Origin: a bacterium
Lineage (GTDB): Bacteria; Patescibacteriota; Patescibacteriia; 2-12-FULL-60-25
DNA length: 64,000 nucleotides
Assembly: GCA_021796435.1 (NCBI GenBank)
Contig: JAJYXM010000016.1
Location: 118,625-182,624 of the forward strand
Direction of reading: 5' to 3'
Positions within the stretch are counted from its first letter, which is position 1; each line of letters begins with the position of its first letter. A model generated the notes under the pieces. The model saw only the letters and a program-made list of their open reading frames with translations. It was not told the DNA's origin and did no database searches. The position numbers and the translations under genes were made by a program. Positions 2,931 through 56,032 of the stretch are shown one piece after another.

Positions 2931-3542
2931 TCAGGGTTCCAGCCGGCGGGCGATCTTGTCTTTTTTGTCGTCATCATCCGGCATGCCGAATTCCTCGACG
3001 GTCTCCTCCAGATGCTCGCGTCTGTCGGCTTCGGCCAGCTCGAGGATAAGTTTTGCTACGTGGTTCGGGTGAGGGACTTCCTCGAATTTGAAACGCTCCA
3101 TCTCGCCGGCCGTCTGCACATAGACATCGCCGTAATCCAAGAGAGTGTGCAGGATGCCTTTTATCTCGGCGGTCACATCTTGTGTCCGGTAAAGCCGCAG
3201 TTCCGAAACGGTGCGGCTGAAGAGCCCGTGCTGGTCGATATCGAGGATACGCTTATCCGTGACGATGAAGACGTCGAGCCAATATTCGACGAACATCTGG
3301 AAGGCGAACAAACAACCGAACATGAAGAAGATGCTGGCGCCAAGGATGTATAGGGTGAAATATTCCGGTTTAGCCAGGAATTCCGGTTGGACTATCTGGA
3401 GACCGATGTAGATACCGATGGGTAAGGCGACGATGAGCGAAGAGATGAGTATCAGCGGGATCAGCGTGATGGGGTGGCGGCGGAAGAACAGGACGTTCTG
3501 TTCATGCAGGTCGGATCCGGGCAGGTGATGGATATCTAACAT
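2931..3542 (-). CDS. membrane protein with bacterial PH-like (bPH_2/YdbT-like) domain
   Basis: Two N-terminal TM helices followed by a domain resembling YdbT/bPH_2, then an acidic tail. A hairpin terminator lies at 2898-2920 downstream on the minus strand. Confidence 0.5.
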   Translation of the reverse strand: MLDIHHLPGSDLHEQNVLFFRRHPITLIPLILISSLIVALPIGIYIGLQIVQPEFLAKPEYFTLYILGASIFFMFGCLFAFQMFVEYWLDVFIVTDKRILDIDQHGLFSRTVSELRLYRTQDVTAEIKGILHTLLDYGDVYVQTAGEMERFKFEEVPHPNHVAKLILELAEADRREHLEETVEEFGMPDDDDKKDKIARRLEP

Positions 3543-13977: not shown

Positions 13978-14104
13978 GAAACACGGCAACTACTGACCCC
14001 AGAGGAGACTCTGGGGTAAAGCTTTATAGAATGGATTCCCGCCTGCGCGGGAATGACAAAAATGGAGAACCCGCCGGAGAGGGCGGGTCGAGGGGTAGGT
14101 CGGG

Positions 14105-20639: not shown

Positions 20640-20769
20640 GGAAACCTCATTGGGAAGGAGCAGCTAACGCTTAGACGGTAACAAGGTGAGCATCATTAAT
20701 CAAATTCAACAGGAGAGATTCTTCGCGGATGACTGGATTCCCCGGTCAAGCCGTGGAATGACAGATGAG

Positions 20770-30250: not shown

Positions 30251-30546
30251 AACACAAACTCCGCCGGCAGAGCCAGCGGAGTTTTGTGATGATTAAAATC
30301 AGTAAATCAAACACCTTGGGCCTTGCCGTGAAGCTTGGTCCAGCGCCATGAGCGGGAAAGAGAGGCGTTTGATGACATATGGCTATCTTAAGATCAGCTT
30401 AGCACGGTTTGTGTTGGCGTCAAGATTTCGCGATCAGCCTTGCTTTTTTGACTCTGTGGAAGTGCTTGTAGTTGGTTTGCGTTCTTATCTTGGGGATAAA
30501 TATACGGATTTAGTTAAAAATGGCTGTTTGACAGATATTTGATAGT

Positions 30547-30561
30547 GTTCTATTTTTGTTC
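30547..30561 (+). promoter_or_regulatory. putative LexA box GTTC-N7-GTTC
   Basis: GTTCTATTTTTGTTC sits upstream of the four-helix-bundle gene and lexA. Confidence 0.5.
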
Positions 30562-30601
30562 GTATAGGGAATGACGAATGCCAAATGACGAATGACGAAT
30601 T

Positions 30602-30964
30602 ATGGAAGGTAATATAATCCAAACCAAAAGTTACGAATTCGCTTTGGCCATAGTCGATGTATACAAAAGGTTGTCGGGCGAACGGAGGGAGTTTGTATTG
30701 TCTAAGCAGTTGCTAAGAAGCGGTACTTCAATCGGTGCCAATATCGAAGAGGCGATTGGCGGGCAGTCGGATAGGGATTTCTTCACGAAGATGACTATAG
30801 CCTACAAAGAAGCGCGTGAGACTTTGTATTGGCTTCGTTTGTTAGGAGATGCAGGATATTTGGAAATGGATGATTCGGCATTATTAGGTAGTAAGTGCGA
30901 TGAGCTGTGCCGAATACTTTCCAAAATCCAATTAACTTTAAAATCTAGAATGAATAGTCCTTAA
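30602..30964 (+). CDS. four-helix-bundle protein (23S rRNA intervening-sequence protein family)
   Basis: SYEFALAIVDVYKRL...QLLRSGTSIGANIEEA is characteristic of this family. Flanked by inverted repeats. Confidence 0.6.
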   Translation: MEGNIIQTKSYEFALAIVDVYKRLSGERREFVLSKQLLRSGTSIGANIEEAIGGQSDRDFFTKMTIAYKEARETLYWLRLLGDAGYLEMDDSALLGSKCDELCRILSKIQLTLKSRMNSP

Positions 30965-31004
30965 TTCGTCATTTGGCATTCGTAATTCGTAATTAATAAA
31001 GTTT

Positions 31005-31628
31005 ATGCCCCCCTTAACACCAAAACAAAAAGAAGTCCTGGACTTCATCGTCAACTTCATAAATGAGCGTGGTTATCCGCCTTCGTTCCGTGAGATCGCC
31101 GATGGATTGGATCTGGCTTCGCCCTCGACCGTGCACGTACACATCCATGCCTTGAAGGAACGTGGTTTCCTTAAGGGCAATGTCGGTGGAGCTCCGGGTG
31201 CGCGCAATCTGGAACCGACGAATAAAGCTGTGCAGTGGGGTAAGAGCGTGCTGTTGCCGCTGAAGGGTCTGATCGCGGCTGGTGCGCCGATCGAGGCAGT
31301 AGAGGAGCGCGAAAGCTTTGCTGTACCGGTAGAGTTGGCGCCGGACTCGGCTAACTCGTATGTGTTGCGAGTAAAAGGTGATTCGATGATCGAGGATGGA
31401 ATCTTCGACGGAGATTATGTCGTAGTCGAACGTTGTCCAAGCCCAAAGAACGGCGACACGGTCGTAGCGCTTTTGGATAATGAGTATGCCACGCTAAAGC
31501 GTTTCTATCGTGAACGTGACCGCATCCGTCTGCAGCCGGCGAATTCGACCATGAAACCGATCTATTGTTACGACCCGTTGATCCAGGGGGTCGTCAGGGC
31601 AGTGATCAGAAAGTTCGAGTTGAGATAA
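31005..31628 (+). CDS. lexA: LexA repressor
   Basis: N-terminal winged HTH; cleavage region with S24 peptidase Ser (GDSM) and Lys. Confidence 0.85.
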   Translation: MPPLTPKQKEVLDFIVNFINERGYPPSFREIADGLDLASPSTVHVHIHALKERGFLKGNVGGAPGARNLEPTNKAVQWGKSVLLPLKGLIAAGAPIEAVEERESFAVPVELAPDSANSYVLRVKGDSMIEDGIFDGDYVVVERCPSPKNGDTVVALLDNEYATLKRFYRERDRIRLQPANSTMKPIYCYDPLIQGVVRAVIRKFELR

Positions 31629-31848
31629 ATTTCGCCTAACATACGACTTAAACGAAGTTTGATTTTTTCAGAGTCGGAACGAGGATTTTTGAGGCAACCC
31701 GCAAAAATCCGAAGTGACCTCGAAAAAATCAAATTTGGGAGAGGCACGAGCCGAGTGCCGAGCCGTTTAAGTCGTGTTATACACCCCGAACGAAGTGAGA
31801 GCGCAGCGTGGTCTGAGCCGAAAGGCGAAGAAGTTTTTCTTTGGGCAA

Positions 31849-32457
31849 TTATAGAATCTTAATTATTCCAATAATTGCATCTGATTTCTTATCTTGATTT
31901 TTAAAAACAAAACCATCCTTCTTTATTTCTTTCTCTCTTCCTTTGTATCTATGTTCAACTCTTTCTAATTGAGATAAATCATAAACGATGGCTATATCAA
32001 CTTTTACAGGTTTGTTCCTGTCAGCTATTGGCCAAAAATAAAATGGCTCGAGAAAATGTTTAAAATATTCATCATTCTTTTTGACTTTGAAATCCAATGC
32101 AAAAAAGTCGATATGCTTGTTATCAAGATTTTCATATCTGTCACCCTTCCGCTTTGGATTATATCTGTCGTATCCTAATTTTTTTATTATTTTGATTAAA
32201 TCATCTATTGTTTTTCCTTTGTGTTCATCTGAACCTAAAACTCTAATAGCGACTTTTTTGCCTAGAAAATGAGATTTTAAACATTTATCAATTTTTTTAC
32301 CTATCTTTTCAAAATCAGGAACATTATCCCAATATATTTTTGGAATTTTGATGTTGTACCAAGGTGTTCCTGCATAATCCATTTTATTTTTGGTGTTTTT
32401 GAAATTTTTAAGTTTATATTCAGGAACACTGACTTGATAGATTGGAATTTTAGCCAT
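31849..32457 (-). CDS. hypothetical protein (AT-rich, Lys-rich)
   Basis: 202-aa ORF in a markedly AT-rich segment. Confidence 0.4.
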   Translation of the reverse strand: MAKIPIYQVSVPEYKLKNFKNTKNKMDYAGTPWYNIKIPKIYWDNVPDFEKIGKKIDKCLKSHFLGKKVAIRVLGSDEHKGKTIDDLIKIIKKLGYDRYNPKRKGDRYENLDNKHIDFFALDFKVKKNDEYFKHFLEPFYFWPIADRNKPVKVDIAIVYDLSQLERVEHRYKGREKEIKKDGFVFKNQDKKSDAIIGIIKIL

Positions 32458-32637
32458 AGTTATCTTAAAGATGGTTTTGTTTTATAAGCTTTTACATCAA
32501 AGTGCCCAAAGAAAAATTGTGTATAACTCGTTTTTGTGCGCAGTGATTGTGGTTTAGGCTGCGATATTGGCATGTTAGACGATGTGTGTTAGCTAGTAAA
32601 TAAGGTGCACGTTCGTAATCCATGTTTATTCTTAGCC

Positions 32638-33462
32638 ATGTTTTTTATGTTGGAGAGATGTCTGCAGAAGACGGCTGACGAAATACGTTTGCGCAATTAT
32701 AGTCGCAAGACCATTAGCGCGTATTTGGCTTGTATAAAGGATTTTTTGTCTAAGAATCCGAATTGCTGTGAACATTGTGATGAGGAAGTAATTCGTCGTT
32801 TTTTGTTGGACAAACATGAAAAGGATTATTCGCCACAAACCGTGAATTTATACTTGAATGCAATCAAATATTATTATCTTGATGTTTTGCGTCTGGGCGT
32901 AAAAATCAATATCAGATTCGCCAAGCGATCAAAGAGGCTGCCTGTCGTGCTGTCTCGTGGTGAGATAGCACGCTTGCTTTCGACCATCAGGAACAACAAA
33001 CATAAGGTTTTGGTGGCCTTAGCTTATGGCGCTGGTATGCGCGTCAGCGAAATAGTCAGGTTGAGGGTCGGCGACGTGTTGTTGGACGAGCTTGTTTTGC
33101 ATATCAAACAAGCCAAGGGGGCCAAAGATAGGATTACAGTAATGCCGGAAAGATTGGCAGATGAGCTGCGTGCTCTGATGGCCGGAAAAGCTCGGGAAGA
33201 TTTTGTTTTTTCCAGCGAACGCGGCGGTCGACTTTCTGAGAGGACGGCGCAGGTTGTGTTCGAACGTGCATTAGTATCAGCCGGGATAGGCAAAACCGCA
33301 ACTTTCCACTCGTTACGTCATAGTTTTGCTACGCATTTACTGGAGAATGGGGTGGATGTGCGTTATGTGCAGGAACTTTTGGGACATCAGAACATACGCA
33401 CGACCCAAATCTACACGCATGTGACTGATCCGGGCATCAGGGGGATAAAAAGTCCGTTTTGA
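32638..33462 (+). CDS. tyrosine site-specific recombinase (XerC/D/integrase family)
   Basis: Catalytic pattern R...HSLRHSFATHLL...R..LLGH....T.IYTHV. Confidence 0.75.
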   Translation: MFFMLERCLQKTADEIRLRNYSRKTISAYLACIKDFLSKNPNCCEHCDEEVIRRFLLDKHEKDYSPQTVNLYLNAIKYYYLDVLRLGVKINIRFAKRSKRLPVVLSRGEIARLLSTIRNNKHKVLVALAYGAGMRVSEIVRLRVGDVLLDELVLHIKQAKGAKDRITVMPERLADELRALMAGKAREDFVFSSERGGRLSERTAQVVFERALVSAGIGKTATFHSLRHSFATHLLENGVDVRYVQELLGHQNIRTTQIYTHVTDPGIRGIKSPF

Positions 33463-33498
33463 ACTTATATTTCAGGGGCTTGACGAGTATTTGCAAGT

Positions 33499-33513
33499 GT
33501 TCTATTTTTGTTC
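33499..33513 (+). promoter_or_regulatory. putative LexA box GTTC-N7-GTTC
   Basis: AGTGTTCTATTTTTGTTCTAGTA is near-identical over 23 nt to the site at 30545. Confidence 0.5.
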
Positions 33514-33606
33514 TAGTAGGCTGATGGATTGTCATCTCGGCCAGCGCGGAGGGATTTTCCAACTAGAAGATTTCTCGACTGTGCTCGAAATGACATTAAG
33601 AGACAT

Positions 33607-33852
33607 ATGTACGAAAAAATCGCGCAGACAATCGACGTATTAGTGGCCTTCCGGAAAGGGCAGGTAGAACCCATGACTTTCAAATGGGATGGTCATTATT
33701 ATCAGGTCAAGAAGGTGAACTTGGTGCACAGCGAGCGGCGGGGCAGGGAAAAGGTAGTGATCTTTTCCGTGTCGGATGAGGCAAATGCGTATCGATTGGC
33801 GTTTTCGACGGAGACGCTGGGCTGGGAGCTGGAGGAGATGGCGACGTTATAA
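33607..33852 (+). CDS. small hypothetical protein
   Basis: ORF beginning just after a roughly 70-bp palindrome. Confidence 0.35.
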   Translation: MYEKIAQTIDVLVAFRKGQVEPMTFKWDGHYYQVKKVNLVHSERRGREKVVIFSVSDEANAYRLAFSTETLGWELEEMATL

Positions 33853-33939
33853 ATAGAATTGTCATCTCGACCGAAGCGGAGAGATCTTCCGGATGTATAG
33901 TCCCTTGAAAAATCTTCTAAACCGTGGCAGCAGTAAGTA

Positions 33940-34230
33940 ATGGGTAGGATTTACTGGGTGTACATACTTACGAATTGCGTGAGCAGCGTCTTTTATATCG
34001 GCGTGACGAATGATTTGGAAAGGAGGCTATTTGAGCATAAAAGTCATGCGGTTCACGGTTTTACAGATAAATATCAGATTAACCGTTTGATTTATTTCGA
34101 AGAGACTACGGATATCATGGCTGCGATTGAGAGAGAAAAGCAGTTGAAGAGGTGGAGCCGGAGTAAGAAAGAACGGTTGATAGCTACGTTGAATCCATTT
34201 TGGAATGATCTGTCGGATGGTTCCCAATAG
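33940..34230 (+). CDS. GIY-YIG nuclease-superfamily protein
   Basis: IYWVYIL...FYIGVTNDLERRLFEHK matches the GIY-YIG motif. Confidence 0.7.
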   Translation: MGRIYWVYILTNCVSSVFYIGVTNDLERRLFEHKSHAVHGFTDKYQINRLIYFEETTDIMAAIEREKQLKRWSRSKKERLIATLNPFWNDLSDGSQ

Positions 34231-34394
34231 GAAGATTTATCGACTGTGCTCGAAATGACATTTTAGAATAAATTGTCATCTCGACCGAAGCGGAGAGATC
34301 TTCCAGACGGAGTGATTCGCCTGTCCGTCCTTCGAGTAGAAGATTTCTCCACTCAGTCGCTAGGCTCCTTCTGTCGAAATGACATTAAGCTTTT

Positions 34395-35780
34395 ATGTCT
34401 TTTTCTCACTCAAAAAATCTCATTGTCCACCTCGACATGAATTCGTATTTCGCGTCGGTGGAGCAGCAGGCTAATCCTACTCTGCGCGGTCGGCCGTTGG
34501 GCGTATGTGCTTATCTTCATAAGAAGGGTTGCGTTATAGCGGCGTCGATCGAGGCAAAGCGTTTAGGCATGAAGGTCGGGATGTCGGTGGAAGAGGCAAA
34601 GATGAAGGTGCCGGGTGCGGTGTTTGTGCAGAATGATCCGCCTAAATATCGTGCGGTGACGTCGCGCGTGTTCGGGATTTTGCATGAACTGACGGACTGC
34701 ATGGAGCACTATTCCATCGATGAAGCGTTCCTCGACATGACGGGTTGGTACCGTGATGCGGCGGAAGTGGCTTGGGTGATGACCCGCGCGCGGCGACGTA
34801 TCCGTGACGAGGTCGGGGATTGGTTGCGCTGTTCCATCGGCATCGCGCCGACGAGATTCTTGGCCAAGACGGCATCTGACATGGAAAAACCGAATGGTTT
34901 GGTGGTGATAGACTACGATAATCTGGATGAGATCCTGGCTAGTTTGGACCTGCAAGATGTGTGCGGTATCGGGCCACGCATCAGTCGACGATTGAAGCGC
35001 CTGGGGATCGAGACGCTGTTGGACCTGAAGCGTTATCCGGTCGGAAACCTGATGCGAGCTTTCGGTAAGAATGGGTTTTACCTGTGGTCTAAGGTAAACG
35101 GCTCCGAAGTGGAGAACGTGACGTCATCAGATGCGGCACCATCGCCTAAATCAGTAGGGCATTCGTATTGCGTCCCTGACAGGGTGAACAAGGAAGGGAA
35201 GGTCTTGGCTACGCTGGTCAAATTGACGGAGCGTGCCGGACGCAGATTGCGTGCCCTGGGTCTCGTGGCTGGGTCGGTGTATGTGAACGTGGGTTTCAGG
35301 AACAGTCTCGTCTCGCCGTTGACCGAAGTGCGTCCGTCGTTCTGGCAGCCGGGGGCGGGTGAAGGAGGCACGTTGTATTCGCTGTTGGATGAACCGGCTT
35401 CGGATTCTTTCACCCTAGTCGGTGCAGCGACGGAGTTATTGCGTGAATTGTGGCATGGGGAAAGGGTGAACTTTCTAGCGGTGACGCTGACAAATCTGGC
35501 GCCGCCTTCACGGCAAGAAAAACTGTCTTCCTGTGCCGCTGTCATCCCGGACTTTATTCGGGATTCAGAAGCTAGATCCCGGGTCTTTGCCCGGGATGAC
35601 GTGGGTACGATTTGTTGGAACGGCGAGGTTGATCGTAAGCGCCTAGCCTCGAAGGCAGCTGACTTGGTGCGCGACCGTTATGGGGACGAGGCGATAGTCT
35701 TGGGTAATATGTTGGGCTTGGGCGATGAGGCGCCGGATAGGATCGGGTTCAGGAAAGTGGAAGGCCTAGAGTTCAGGTGA
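34395..35780 (+). CDS. dinB: DNA polymerase IV (Y-family) with a roughly 100-aa C-terminal extension
   Basis: LDMNSYFASVE...; Y-family palm, fingers and little-finger order. The ORF continues about 100 aa beyond the usual DinB end. Confidence 0.85.
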   Translation: MSFSHSKNLIVHLDMNSYFASVEQQANPTLRGRPLGVCAYLHKKGCVIAASIEAKRLGMKVGMSVEEAKMKVPGAVFVQNDPPKYRAVTSRVFGILHELTDCMEHYSIDEAFLDMTGWYRDAAEVAWVMTRARRRIRDEVGDWLRCSIGIAPTRFLAKTASDMEKPNGLVVIDYDNLDEILASLDLQDVCGIGPRISRRLKRLGIETLLDLKRYPVGNLMRAFGKNGFYLWSKVNGSEVENVTSSDAAPSPKSVGHSYCVPDRVNKEGKVLATLVKLTERAGRRLRALGLVAGSVYVNVGFRNSLVSPLTEVRPSFWQPGAGEGGTLYSLLDEPASDSFTLVGAATELLRELWHGERVNFLAVTLTNLAPPSRQEKLSSCAAVIPDFIRDSEARSRVFARDDVGTICWNGEVDRKRLASKAADLVRDRYGDEAIVLGNMLGLGDEAPDRIGFRKVEGLEFR

Positions 35781-39321: not shown

Positions 39322-41925
39322 ATGGCATCAACATATCCATTCCAAGAAATAGAGAAGAAGTGGCAGGAATTCTGGGACAAAGAGGGGACTTATCGGGCGG
39401 AAGACCTTCCGTCGAGCGAGAAGCAGAAAAAGTTCTACGGCCTGATCGAGTTCCCGTACCCCTCGGGAGAAGGTCTGCACGTGGGACATCCGCGCTCTTA
39501 CATCGCCATAGATCTGATGACGCGCAAGAAGCGCATGGAGGGCAAGGATGTGCTCTATCCCATAGGTTGGGATGCTTTTGGGTTGCCGACAGAAAACTTC
39601 GCGATCAAACACAAGGTCAAACCGGCTGATGCGACGGCCAAGAACGTAGCGAACTTCACACGACAGATAAAGTCGCTCGGCATAGGGTTCGACTGGTCGC
39701 GCGAGATCAATACGACTGATCCGGCTTATTATCGATGGACACAGTGGATGTTTCTCAAGTTCTACGGCTCGTATTTCGATGTCGTGGAGGGTCGGGCTAA
39801 GCCTATAGACCTGTTGGCTATCCCACAGAACGTAGCGGAGCAGGGCGAGGAAGCGACGAGACGGTTCCGGGACGAACATAGGATGGCTTTCAAGGCAGAG
39901 ACTAAGATCAACTGGTGCCCGAGCTGCAAGATAGGCCTGGCCAACGAAGAGGCTATCGGTGGGGTCTGTGAGCGTTGCGGCTCGACAGTCGAGCAACGTA
40001 CCAAAGAGCAGTGGATGATCCGCATCACAGCCTATGCGCAACGTCTGTTGGATGATTTGGCGAACGTAGATTATCTGGAAAAGATCAAAGCACAGCAGAT
40101 CAATTGGATCGGACGGAGCGAGGGAGCTTATGTTGATTTTGGGATCAGAACCGATAAGAGCGGAGATCTGTTACCTGAAAAATTGACGGTTTTCACCACT
40201 CGGCCCGACACCTTGTTTGGCGCGACTTATATGGTCTTGGCGCCGGAGCATGAGATGGTTTCGCGATGGATCGAAGACGGATCGATAGAGAACGCTACGG
40301 AGGTGGAGGCGTATAAAGCTCAAGCCAGAGGGATGAGCGAACTGCAACGACAAGAAAATAAAGAGAAGACTGGTGTTCAGCTCAAAGGAGTCGTGGCGAT
40401 CAATCCGGCGAACAACGAGAAGATACCGGTATGGATAGCGGATTATGTCTTGGCCGGATATGGGACGGGGGCGATCATGGCGGTACCGGCGCATGACGAA
40501 CGCGATTTCGAGTTCGCACAGAAATTCGGTCTGCCCATAGTCCAGGTCGTAGCGGCGGCGGAAGGGGACGAGACGCGTGGTTTGCCGTTCACCGTGAAGG
40601 GAGTGGCTTTCGATTCCGGCATATTGAACGGATTAACGACGGATGAAGCGACGACCAAGATGATCGAATGGTTGGCACAGAACGGATATGGTCGTGGAGC
40701 GATCAACTACAAGCTGCGTGATTGGGTCTTTTCCCGTCAGAGATATTGGGGCGAGCCGATTCCGTTGGTGAAGTGCCAGAAGTGCGGTTGGGTACCGGTA
40801 CCGGAAGAACAGCTGCCGGTGACTTTGCCTGACGTGGATAATTACGAGCCCACGGATAACGGAGATTCGCCGCTTGCGGCTATACGCAGCTGGGTCGAAA
40901 CGACTTGTCCGCATTGCGGCGGTCCAGCAGAGCGCGAGACGGACACTATGCCCAACTGGGCGGGTTCATCCTGGTATTTCATGCGCTACTGCGACCCACA
41001 TAACGACAAGGCGTTCGCGGATCCGGAGAAACTGAAGTTCTGGATGCCGGTAGACCTATATAACGGAGGCATGGAGCACACGACTCTGCATCTGTTGTAT
41101 TCGCGTTTTTGGTACAAATTCTTGTGGGACCTGGGTTTGGTGCCGCATGAATGCGGGTCTGAACCGTACGCCAAACGGCGTTCGCATGCTTTGATTTTGG
41201 GTGAAGGCGGCATCAAGATGTCCAAATCAAAAGGTAATGTCGTGAATCCGGACGATGTAGTGAAGGATTATGGCGCTGACGTATTCCGTGTCTATCAGAT
41301 GTTCATCGGACCGTTCGACCAGGATGCGCCTTGGGATACGCATGGGATCGAGGGTGTGAGGAGATTCTTGGAGAAGGTGTTGAGAATTTTTGACTCTGTT
41401 ATTCCAGCGGAGGCTGGAACCCAGGAACCAGATTCCCCGGTCAAGCCGTGGAATGACAATGTTGAAACCTTGCTCCATCAGACGATAAAGAAAGTTGGTG
41501 AAGATATCGAAGCCATGCACTTCAATACCGCGGTGTCAGCTTTGATGATCTTGGTGAATGAAATGTCGGAATCGCGTACCTCGTACCGCGTACCGCGTGC
41601 GGATTTGGAGACGTTGCTCAAGCTAGTGGCGCCCTTCGCCCCACATATGACTGATGAGTTATGGCACAAGTTAGGGCACGAAACATCGATCCATCGTGAG
41701 GCGTGGCCGCAATATGATCCGGCGAAATGCGTGACCTCGACGTTCGAGATGGTGGTCCAGGTGAACGGCAAGGTACGTGATAAGATGGAAGTGGCGACGG
41801 ATATCCCTGAAGAAGAAGCGAAGGCCAAAGCGTTGGCTTCGGAGAAGGTAAAGCCTTATCTTGATGGAAAAGAACCGCAGAAAGTGGTGTATGTGAAAGG
41901 ACGGTTGGTGAGCATTTCGATCTGA
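39322..41925 (+). CDS. leuS: leucyl-tRNA synthetase
   Basis: HIGH motif (HVGHPRSY), KMSKS, and CP1 editing domain; 867 aa. Confidence 0.95.
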   Translation: MASTYPFQEIEKKWQEFWDKEGTYRAEDLPSSEKQKKFYGLIEFPYPSGEGLHVGHPRSYIAIDLMTRKKRMEGKDVLYPIGWDAFGLPTENFAIKHKVKPADATAKNVANFTRQIKSLGIGFDWSREINTTDPAYYRWTQWMFLKFYGSYFDVVEGRAKPIDLLAIPQNVAEQGEEATRRFRDEHRMAFKAETKINWCPSCKIGLANEEAIGGVCERCGSTVEQRTKEQWMIRITAYAQRLLDDLANVDYLEKIKAQQINWIGRSEGAYVDFGIRTDKSGDLLPEKLTVFTTRPDTLFGATYMVLAPEHEMVSRWIEDGSIENATEVEAYKAQARGMSELQRQENKEKTGVQLKGVVAINPANNEKIPVWIADYVLAGYGTGAIMAVPAHDERDFEFAQKFGLPIVQVVAAAEGDETRGLPFTVKGVAFDSGILNGLTTDEATTKMIEWLAQNGYGRGAINYKLRDWVFSRQRYWGEPIPLVKCQKCGWVPVPEEQLPVTLPDVDNYEPTDNGDSPLAAIRSWVETTCPHCGGPAERETDTMPNWAGSSWYFMRYCDPHNDKAFADPEKLKFWMPVDLYNGGMEHTTLHLLYSRFWYKFLWDLGLVPHECGSEPYAKRRSHALILGEGGIKMSKSKGNVVNPDDVVKDYGADVFRVYQMFIGPFDQDAPWDTHGIEGVRRFLEKVLRIFDSVIPAEAGTQEPDSPVKPWNDNVETLLHQTIKKVGEDIEAMHFNTAVSALMILVNEMSESRTSYRVPRADLETLLKLVAPFAPHMTDELWHKLGHETSIHREAWPQYDPAKCVTSTFEMVVQVNGKVRDKMEVATDIPEEEAKAKALASEKVKPYLDGKEPQKVVYVKGRLVSISI

Positions 41926-55540: not shown

Positions 55541-56032
55541 GCGGGGAGGATACAGCAAAGGAGAGTTTTTTCATTTGTTCCGGAACTCGCTTGTTTTTTG
55601 TCATCCCGCACTCCCGCCCGCAACGCCTTGCTTGCATGGCGGGCGCGGTGATGCGGGATCTGGATCCAGGGTCTTTGCCCGGGACGACAGGCTGAGCAAA
55701 AGAAAACAAAAAAATCACCCCGATGGATTCATCTCGCGATGGATCATCGGGGTGATTTATTCCCGGACCGGAAGCTGCAAAGAGCTGCCACGCCAAGTAA
55801 ACGGCTGTACCCATGTGAGGAGAGAGAATCCCTCAATGAAGAGGGAAACCACGGATATTACCATTAGAAGCGTACAACACTTCGCAGCTCCCGGGCCGGG
55901 AATCCGCATACGGTAGGTGGCGCTACATTCTTTGTCAAGATGAAAACTTCGCATCCTTCTTCGGTCAACCGTCAGTATGGCGGATCGAAGGAGGTGTCCG
56001 ACCGGTAAGGGAGCCCGGTCGGAAGAGTCGTC

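Follow-up and report, generated by a model that had tools for sequence, protein, structure and literature searches.

Tagged inverted hairpins around a GIY-YIG gene in the lexA-orf81-dinB operon of a patescibacterium: a probable Ssn/SRM unit

Two described systems stand closest to the locus reported here. The CGTC-tagged repetitive extragenic palindromes (REPs) of Di Nocera et al. (2013; PMC3733652) have a CGTC or TGTC tag, a stem that starts with an A-T pair, and a short tail; they occur as inverted dimers, with occasional copies within repair genes, and no dedicated enzyme was known for them at that time. SsnA of Neisseria meningitidis (Chenal et al. 2025; PMC11893778) is a 94-amino-acid (aa), single-domain GIY-YIG protein (CDD cd10448) that binds the NTS (CGTCATTCCCGCGMAVGCGGGAATCYRG), the Neisseria member of the CGTC-tagged REP superfamily, as single-stranded DNA and cuts it a few nucleotides (nt) upstream of the tag; it was inactive on double-stranded DNA, RNA, and the reverse strand, and it did not bind RNA. 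Cleavage was abolished in the mutants Y6A, Y17A, and E64A; the majority of ssn homologues were flanked by Ssn-related motif (SRM) hairpins, in the arrangement NTS-ssnA-NTS; and the mobility of ssn units was raised only as a question (PMC11893778). Here we describe a GIY-YIG gene and the tagged inverted hairpins around it, found in a 64,000-nt stretch (the window) of a Patescibacteria contig (NCBI GenBank assembly GCA_021796435.1, contig JAJYXM010000016.1, positions 118,625 to 182,624 of the forward strand), which very probably constitute an Ssn-family/SRM unit with two empty SRM pairs in a lexA-orf81-dinB operon. The system is one already described in 2025; its member in the candidate phyla radiation (CPR) is new and brings Patescibacteria into its known range.

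The window contained a single ssn gene (Table 1). A Pfam search of its product found no domain besides GIY-YIG and hence no separate DNA-binding domain. We found 1598 homologues of this protein, with Y8, Y19, R29, E66, and N85 invariant or nearly so; in a 30-sequence alignment the same held for Y8, Y19, and E66. The spacing of these last three residues (+11, +58) was that of Y6, Y17, and E64 in SsnA, the residues needed for cleavage, the mapping between the two proteins being by spacing. NCBIfam had no specific model for the window Ssn, which gave weak matches to homing endonucleases in NCBIfam and PHROG; the PDB held no Ssn structure, the nearest entries being weakly matching UPF0213 proteins.

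The hairpins were first noticed as three copies of a forward motif and three of its inverse downstream of a tyrosine recombinase gene, and all six were located where the earlier note had placed them, far beyond what chance would give. The forward motif, TTGTCATCTCGACCGAAGCGGAGAGATCTTCC, was matched perfectly by the left arms of H2 and H3 (Table 1) and with 6 mismatches in 32 positions by that of H1; its chance expectation was nil (0 matches in 100 shuffles). The inverse motif, AGAAGATTTCTCGACTGTGCTCGAAATGACATT, was matched perfectly by the right arm of H1 and with 2 mismatches by that of H2, while the third copy, the right arm of H3, was broken by inserted bases. Forward and inverse motifs were imperfect reverse complements, agreeing at 24 of 32 positions, and the six arms paired into the three inverted units H1, H2, and H3. 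The earlier description of palindromes bracketing short open reading frames (ORFs) therefore stood as to the three inverted pairs; the GIY-YIG ORF, however, did not lie between separate palindromes but inside one of them, H2, and the 81-aa ORF was the only one between units. Read from the outer end inward, all six arms ran TGTC-AT...AT-C, each being a tagged hairpin, with stems of ATCTC/GAGAT in the left arms and ATTTC/GAAAT in the right arms. The C/A "mismatch" that recurs when left arms are set against right arms is thus a difference compensated within each arm. The local arms had 5 Watson-Crick pairs, then tandem G.A/A.G, then 1 to 3 further pairs; the right arm of H2 differed from that of H1 at 2 positions, and its A at 34239 weakened its own stem. 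A degenerate counterpart of the left arm of H1 was present in the same spacer of three relatives (our loci L001, L219, and L216).

Table 1. Features of the locus and further SRM copies, in positions of the window
Feature	Position	Strand	Description
ssn	33940-34230	+	96-aa single-domain GIY-YIG nuclease; PF01541 at residues 5-77, E=1.5e-16
Unit H1	33529-33597		4-nt spacer between arms; no gene inside ("empty")
Unit H2	33859-34262		Encloses the GIY-YIG ORF
Unit H3	34273-34389		No gene inside ("empty")
H1 left arm	33529-33560	+	Divergent copy
H1 right arm	33565-33597	-	Perfect inverse motif
H2 left arm	33859-33890	+	TGTC tag, ATCTC-GA-CCG/AAG/CGG-A-GAGAT hairpin, C tail
H2 right arm	34230-34262	-	Minus-strand tag reads TGTCATTTCGAGC...; begins at ssn stop codon
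H3 left arm	34273-34304	+	Same sequence as H2 left arm
H3 right arm	34338-34389	-	Split by ~19 extra bases
Solo canonical SRM, TGTCATTCCCGCGCAGGCGGGAATCCAT	14031-14058	-	Intergenic; -8.9 kcal/mol, z -4.35
Intergenic SRM	20733-20763 (also given as 20716-20763)	-	Matches published pattern
In-frame SRM pair in dinB	35540-35601		Pattern match 35572-35601; tags outward
In-frame SRM pair in leuS-like ORF (39322-41925)	41396-41458		Pattern match 41428-41458
Intergenic SRM pair	55599-55689		Tags outward; other stem class, ATCCCGC / GTCCCGG
Xer/XerA-like tyrosine recombinase	32638-33462	+	Adjacent to the Ssn/SRM unit, not part of it
orf81	33607-33852	+	Conserved 81-aa protein; 91 homologues; weak DUF6504 match, E=0.009
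dinB	34395-35780	+	Y-family polymerase; downstream operon gene
Operon promoter, first copy	30528-30561		TTGACA-17-TATTTT; upstream of lexA
Operon promoter, second copy	33480-33513	+	TTGACG-17-TATTTT; GTTC-N7-GTTC box at 33499-33513

The partnership of gene and hairpin extended well beyond the window. Across 80 metagenomic loci encoding ssn homologues, a hairpin with its tag outward stood upstream of the gene in 58 of 76 (76%) and downstream of it in 48 of 75 (64%), while 38 of 71 loci had one on either side, against an expectation of about 0.55 loci from shuffles. Two homologues, 56% (L208) and 54% (L170) identical to the window Ssn, were flanked by TGTCATTCCCGCG(C/A)AGGCGGGAATCC(A/G)G, which is the NTS consensus except at base 1. 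The motif of the right arms, TTCTCGAC-N(2-5)-CTCGAAATGAC, occurred in at least 120 genome stretches when each species was represented by one genome, with about 17 estimated by chance, and the matches listed included Bacteroidota, Clostridia, Chloroflexota, Planctomycetota, Verrucomicrobiota, Spirochaetota, and several CPR lineages. An association of gene and repeat across phyla points to a protein-DNA partnership. The fallback offered by the earlier note, a CPR-specific hairpin family or miniature inverted-repeat transposable element (MITE) accompanying a mobile GIY-YIG gene, was thus right in substance: the hairpin family is tied to the gene. It is spread over many phyla, however, and so is not CPR-specific.

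Most hairpins at these loci were of one build. The 80 loci yielded 243 different tagged hairpins, of which 230 had A-T at position 1 and 215 had T-A at position 2; beyond five Watson-Crick pairs, position 6 was G.A in 78%, position 7 was A.G in 73%, and position 8 was once more a Watson-Crick pair in 80%. A strict hairpin finder demanding at least 6 contiguous pairs recovered few arms, and it was from this poor recovery that the tandem-GA class was recognized. The local arms belong to this class, which is the dominant one in this branch of Ssn. The published SRM search pattern, HGTCWYN(0-2)YYVSBRHN(0-5)WNVSBRGN(0-2)RNCYNB, matched just 3 of the 80 closest homologue loci; it misses the dominant hairpin class of the branch, a 5-bp stem with tandem G.A pairs. 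As a separate observation, Clostridia metagenome contigs (L002 to L011) carried an identical 97-aa Ssn in two genomic contexts, one with a GerA operon and P-type ATPase, the other with an ABC transporter and VanW, each within arrays of SRM hairpins, and the ssn copies of the two contexts were 98% identical in DNA over 393 bp. Element ends could not be taken from a comparison of L002 with L006, as the 98%-identical segment (2940-3331) stopped within the repeats and gave no clean boundaries.

Several results weigh against the assignment of the local arms to the Ssn/SRM system. None of the six arms matched the published SRM pattern. When folded as single-stranded DNA with nearest-neighbour energies, the left arms took the expected hairpin but weakly (-4.5 kcal/mol), and the right arms alone formed a weak hairpin or none (-1.4 to -2.1 kcal/mol, two of them at about -1.5; z about 0 to +0.85). 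In the empty units, a long hairpin of left arm with right arm was the stabler fold compared with the single arms. Within the window, moreover, the repeat subfamily of the local arms was confined to the ssn locus. The whole of H3 folded as a long hairpin of -19.8/-22.9 kcal/mol (z -2.7/-3.3), and its stability would also suit a different explanation, that the hairpins act at the RNA level, as mRNA stabilizers, RNase III sites, or attenuators in a lexA-orf81-ssn-dinB transcript in which ssn is a passenger. Each of the three units has a co-directional gene on either side, with a single promoter upstream of all, and so is transcribed; several of the left-right mismatches are, by eye, G.T wobbles on the sense strand; and an RNA-element function has been proposed for CGTC-tagged REPs (PMC3733652). 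Against this, tag, stem, and tail were kept in either orientation relative to neighbouring genes, the unit of L219 being antisense to the operon; the gene-repeat association crossed phyla; SsnA binds no RNA (PMC11893778); no terminator-like T tracts followed the hairpins; and Rfam gave nothing relevant, either for the window and 17 loci at the gathering threshold or for 31500-34500 at E<=5. We therefore regard a role of the hairpins in RNA as improbable.

Outside the ssn locus, the published SRM pattern found 4 further sites in the window, where 0.4 were expected and 0 of 200 shuffles reached 4. The solo copy at 14031 had a loop of 4 nt on a perfect stem of 8 bp; it departed from the Neisseria NTS consensus only in its first base and in the final two bases of the YRG tail, which read AT in place of RG. 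The pair within dinB encoded ...AAVIPDFIRDSEARSRVFARDDVG... (VIPDFIRD...ARDD) in DinB; this peptide was present in the window and L001 only and absent from the DinB of L216, L219, L220, and L221, that of L216 being about 22 aa shorter at the site. Another in-frame pair lay in the variable linker of a leucyl-tRNA synthetase, where the segment of L001 was 15 nt shorter and only partly similar; either the pair was inserted recently in the window, or L001 holds a decayed copy of it. The copies at 14031, 20733, and 55599 were of other stem classes and had no ssn nearby in the window. The genome carries several SRM classes and yet only one ssn within 64 kb.

The spacers of the operon differed among relatives. 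Comparison of homologous loci, proposed in the earlier note as a check for cassette turnover, gave a divided answer: ssn units turned over, but orf81 was fixed and is not a cassette, because its position between lexA and dinB was kept in every relative examined (L001, L216, L217, L219, L220, and L221). The simplest arrangement, lexA-orf81-dinB with no ssn, was that of L216 and L220; L221 had in addition an ORF for a four-helix-bundle protein between lexA and orf81. L217 and L218 had ssn on the plus strand between orf81 and dinB. In L219 the order was lexA-orf77-(empty pair)-orf81-(ssn, minus strand)-dinB, and in L001 it was lexA-(empty pair)-orf81-(empty pair)(ssn, plus strand)-dinB; L132 showed orf81 followed by ssn on the plus strand. 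As the window reads orf81-(ssn, plus strand)(empty pair)-dinB, the order of ssn and empty pair in this spacer is swapped between L001 and the window. L001 was close to the window throughout (LexA 97% identical, orf81 84%, DinB 88%, Ssn 90%). In L217, by comparison, LexA was 91% and orf81 88% identical to the window and Ssn 62%; in L219 the values were 93% for LexA, 84% for orf81, 76% for DinB, and again 62% for Ssn. An identity of 62% is the level of Ssn homologues from other phyla, and L217 and L219 had arms that differed in sequence from the window arms as well. The low identity of Ssn against flanks of 76-93%, together with the differing arms, indicated that the ssn units of this spacer are non-orthologous, having been replaced or independently inserted. 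In an empty pair of L001 there remained some 30 nt similar to the 3' end of ssn, and TGGAATG stood at each junction of the ORF segment; this is consistent with an empty pair that arose by internal deletion. Taken as a series, these loci provide direct, though circumstantial, evidence that ssn units have been gained, inverted, and replaced.

The three units are inserted in the intergenic spacers of lexA-orf81-dinB, and the empty pairs behave like non-autonomous derivatives, analogous to MITEs or REPINs. By homology with SsnA of N. meningitidis (PMC11893778), Ssn would bind its own hairpin solely in single-stranded DNA, recognizing it by its YGTC tag, its stem, and the C that follows the stem, with cleavage a few nucleotides to the 5' side of the tag. 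Since the tags point outward, one cut is predicted on each strand, immediately beyond the unit. From this series we put forward, tentatively and with more doubt than confidence, that SRM-ssn-SRM is a mobile element driven by a GIY-YIG nuclease of single-stranded DNA, with the gene-less pairs as its non-autonomous derivatives. If the unit is indeed a mobile element, it would supply the "missing transposase" of the CGTC-tagged REPs, and this lineage may catch it in the act, through the different states of the spacers and the in-frame pairs in dinB and leuS; mobilization of repeats by Ssn would represent a new enzymatic route for the spread of REP-like repeats.

The same spacers might be explained by a homing-endonuclease gene, that is, by a GIY-YIG protein that makes a double-strand break in empty palindromes and an ORF that is then copied in by recombinational repair. 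This would fit the presence of ssn in one hairpin pair in the window but in the adjacent pair in L001, the empty pair of L001 with its ssn-like remnant and its TGGAATG junctions, and the weak PHROG and NCBIfam matches to homing endonucleases. Deletion between the TGGAATG repeats explains empty pairs equally well, however; Ssn has no DNA-binding domain; its characterized relative SsnA has no activity on double-stranded DNA (PMC11893778); and the near-identical Clostridia copies in their two contexts end within repeats and not cleanly. Homing is accordingly very unlikely in our estimation.

The earlier note had likened the palindromes to integron attC sites and their arrangement to cassettes beside a tyrosine recombinase; in such a platform the recombinase would capture small gene cassettes upstream of dinB. 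This reading fitted some of the evidence: the best NCBIfam match of the recombinase was to the integron integrase model TIGR02249, its N-terminal domain was of the SAM_4 type typical of IntI, the palindromes were imperfect and 70-120 bp long, and the content of the spacers varied between relatives. The match to TIGR02249, however, reached 223 bits where the cutoff is 265 and fell in two stretches, and that to the archaeal XerA model scored 217.6 against a cutoff of 220. The additional domain specific to IntI consists of about 35-45 aa between conserved patches. When the recombinase was aligned with VchIntIA (PDB 2a3v), query residues 14-182 corresponded to chain residues 11-182 and query 198-273 to chain 241-316; chain residues 183-240 were skipped, the query having 15 residues there, so that about 43 were missing at the IntI-specific domain. 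That domain, whose presence the note had wished to see checked, was absent. The protein belongs instead to a family with 7083 matches at E<=1e-20, of about 270 aa, in Patescibacteria and typically 57-68% identical, and its closest homologues adjoin unrelated genes (type I restriction-modification, or AdoMet decarboxylase with ComEC) and had no adjacent lexA or dinB.

Nor did the surroundings of the recombinase conform to an integron. It was transcribed in the same direction as the supposed cassettes; box pairs of the form RYYYAAC...GTTRRRY (R''/R') were found on neither strand between 33400 and 34450, the palindromes ending in TGTCAT/ATGACA; and the GIY-YIG ORF lies inside a palindrome, with orf81 a fixed gene of the operon. 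The recombinase was missing from the seven loci that hold the lexA-orf81 segment (L001 and L216-L221), five of which carry the repeats; L132 was too short to judge. Among the 120 listed stretches with the right-arm motif a tyrosine recombinase was present in 3 (a GIY-YIG protein in 2), it was present in 0 of 90 ssn-homologue loci (the 80 metagenomic ones and 10 others, 309 kb altogether), and SRMs occurred elsewhere in the window, so the repeats are not tied to the recombinase. Together with the missing IntI domain, this is the outcome that the note had named as refuting its integron reading. In the window, the recombinase gene and the second promoter copy lie in a window-specific insertion of about 1.9 kb (approximately 31629-33515) between lexA and H1, and this insertion is independent of the repeats. 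We conclude that capture of cassettes by this recombinase at attC-type palindromes is extremely improbable, which removes a false integron call from a CPR genome. Xer-like recombinases with an IntI-like N-terminus beside palindromes are easily mistaken for integrons.

The insertion itself had other features. At its left edge, right after lexA, was a nested palindromic element of about 150 nt (31637-31790), which folded as single-stranded DNA to -36 kcal/mol (z -6.05), was single-copy in the window, and had no match in Rfam. It was followed by a 202-aa ORF on the minus strand (31849-32457) with a GC content of 27-29%, compared with about 50-55% around it, bracketed by a perfect 14-nt inverted repeat (31834-31847 and 32503-32516). 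This AT-rich ORF, which had no match in Pfam, NCBIfam, PHROG, or PADLOC, is probably foreign DNA.

The backbone of the locus is a conserved operon, lexA-orf81-dinB, probably of the SOS type and under LexA control. The homologues of orf81 with a named source were all from Patescibacteria; searches of PHROGs and PADLOC with this protein returned nothing, and it may be an uncharacterized accessory factor of the SOS response or of translesion synthesis. The promoter copies were about 45 bp long, and their -10 element overlapped GTTCTATTTTTGTTC, a GTTC-N7-GTTC direct repeat resembling the alphaproteobacterial LexA box. L001 and L216 had a single promoter copy, upstream of lexA; the second copy of the window lay at the right-hand edge of the insertion that bears the recombinase. 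SOS co-regulation was entertained as a functional link between ssn and the operon but was given little weight, since the unit of L219 is antisense and three relatives have no ssn. In addition, an ORF for a four-helix-bundle protein (PF05635/TIGR02436, "23S rRNA intervening sequence protein") at 30602-30964 was enclosed by its own inverted repeat of 35-37 nt with GAATGAC/GAATTAC-like heptads, the whole element (30569-30994) being inserted between the SOS-type promoter and lexA. The corresponding stretch of L221 (3082-3500), between lexA and orf81, held a homologous ORF with different flanking inverted repeats. The operon is thus used by another kind of "ORF inside a hairpin" element as well.

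Set beside known systems, the locus resembles an integron in having a tyrosine recombinase with an IntI-like N-terminus beside imperfect palindromes of 70-120 bp, and in its variable content of small ORFs. It differs from one in that the recombinase lacks the IntI-specific domain, the palindromes lack attC core sites, and the ORF lies within a palindrome; in integrons, moreover, the integrase is conserved and divergently transcribed, whereas the local recombinase is co-directional and not conserved at the locus, and the repeats are widespread without recombinases. The locus would share its logic with REP/BIME-RAYT systems (REPtrons) and with IS200/IS605, which likewise have a small nuclease gene bracketed by inverted hairpins that are recognized as single-stranded DNA, with many gene-less copies and dimers (REPINs) elsewhere. 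Unlike the REPtrons, however, the unit described here has a GIY-YIG nuclease and not an HUH Y1 transposase, and a YGTC (here TGTC) tag and not GTAG. We know of no demonstration of strand transfer or transposition by Ssn.

With the CGTC-tagged REPs (PMC3733652), which include dRS3 of Neisseria and RPE-4/6 of Rickettsia, the local hairpins share the unpaired terminal tag, the stem starting with A-T and then T-A, the short tail, and the inverted dimers, as well as occasional in-frame copies in genes. Among the CGTC-tagged REPs these are notably repair genes; in the window they are dinB and leuS. In the CGTC-tagged REPs the stems have 8-9 uninterrupted bp and loops of 4-5 nt, whereas the local arms have interrupted stems and in some cases long loops; and the local repeats flank an ssn gene, whereas no dedicated enzyme was found for those REPs. 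Closest of all is the Ssn/NTS system (PMC11893778), with which the locus has in common a single-domain GIY-YIG protein of about 95 aa with the same catalytic Tyr/Tyr/Glu spacing; inverted, oriented hairpins on either side of the gene, with a YGTC tag, a stem starting with AT, and a C tail; and extra gene-less copies elsewhere in the genome, including a near-consensus NTS in the window. It departs from the published system in that the local arms fail the published SRM pattern and have different left and right stems, in that its host belongs to the Patescibacteria (CPR), a group absent from the main text of PMC11893778, and in that the local unit sits inside a putative SOS operon.

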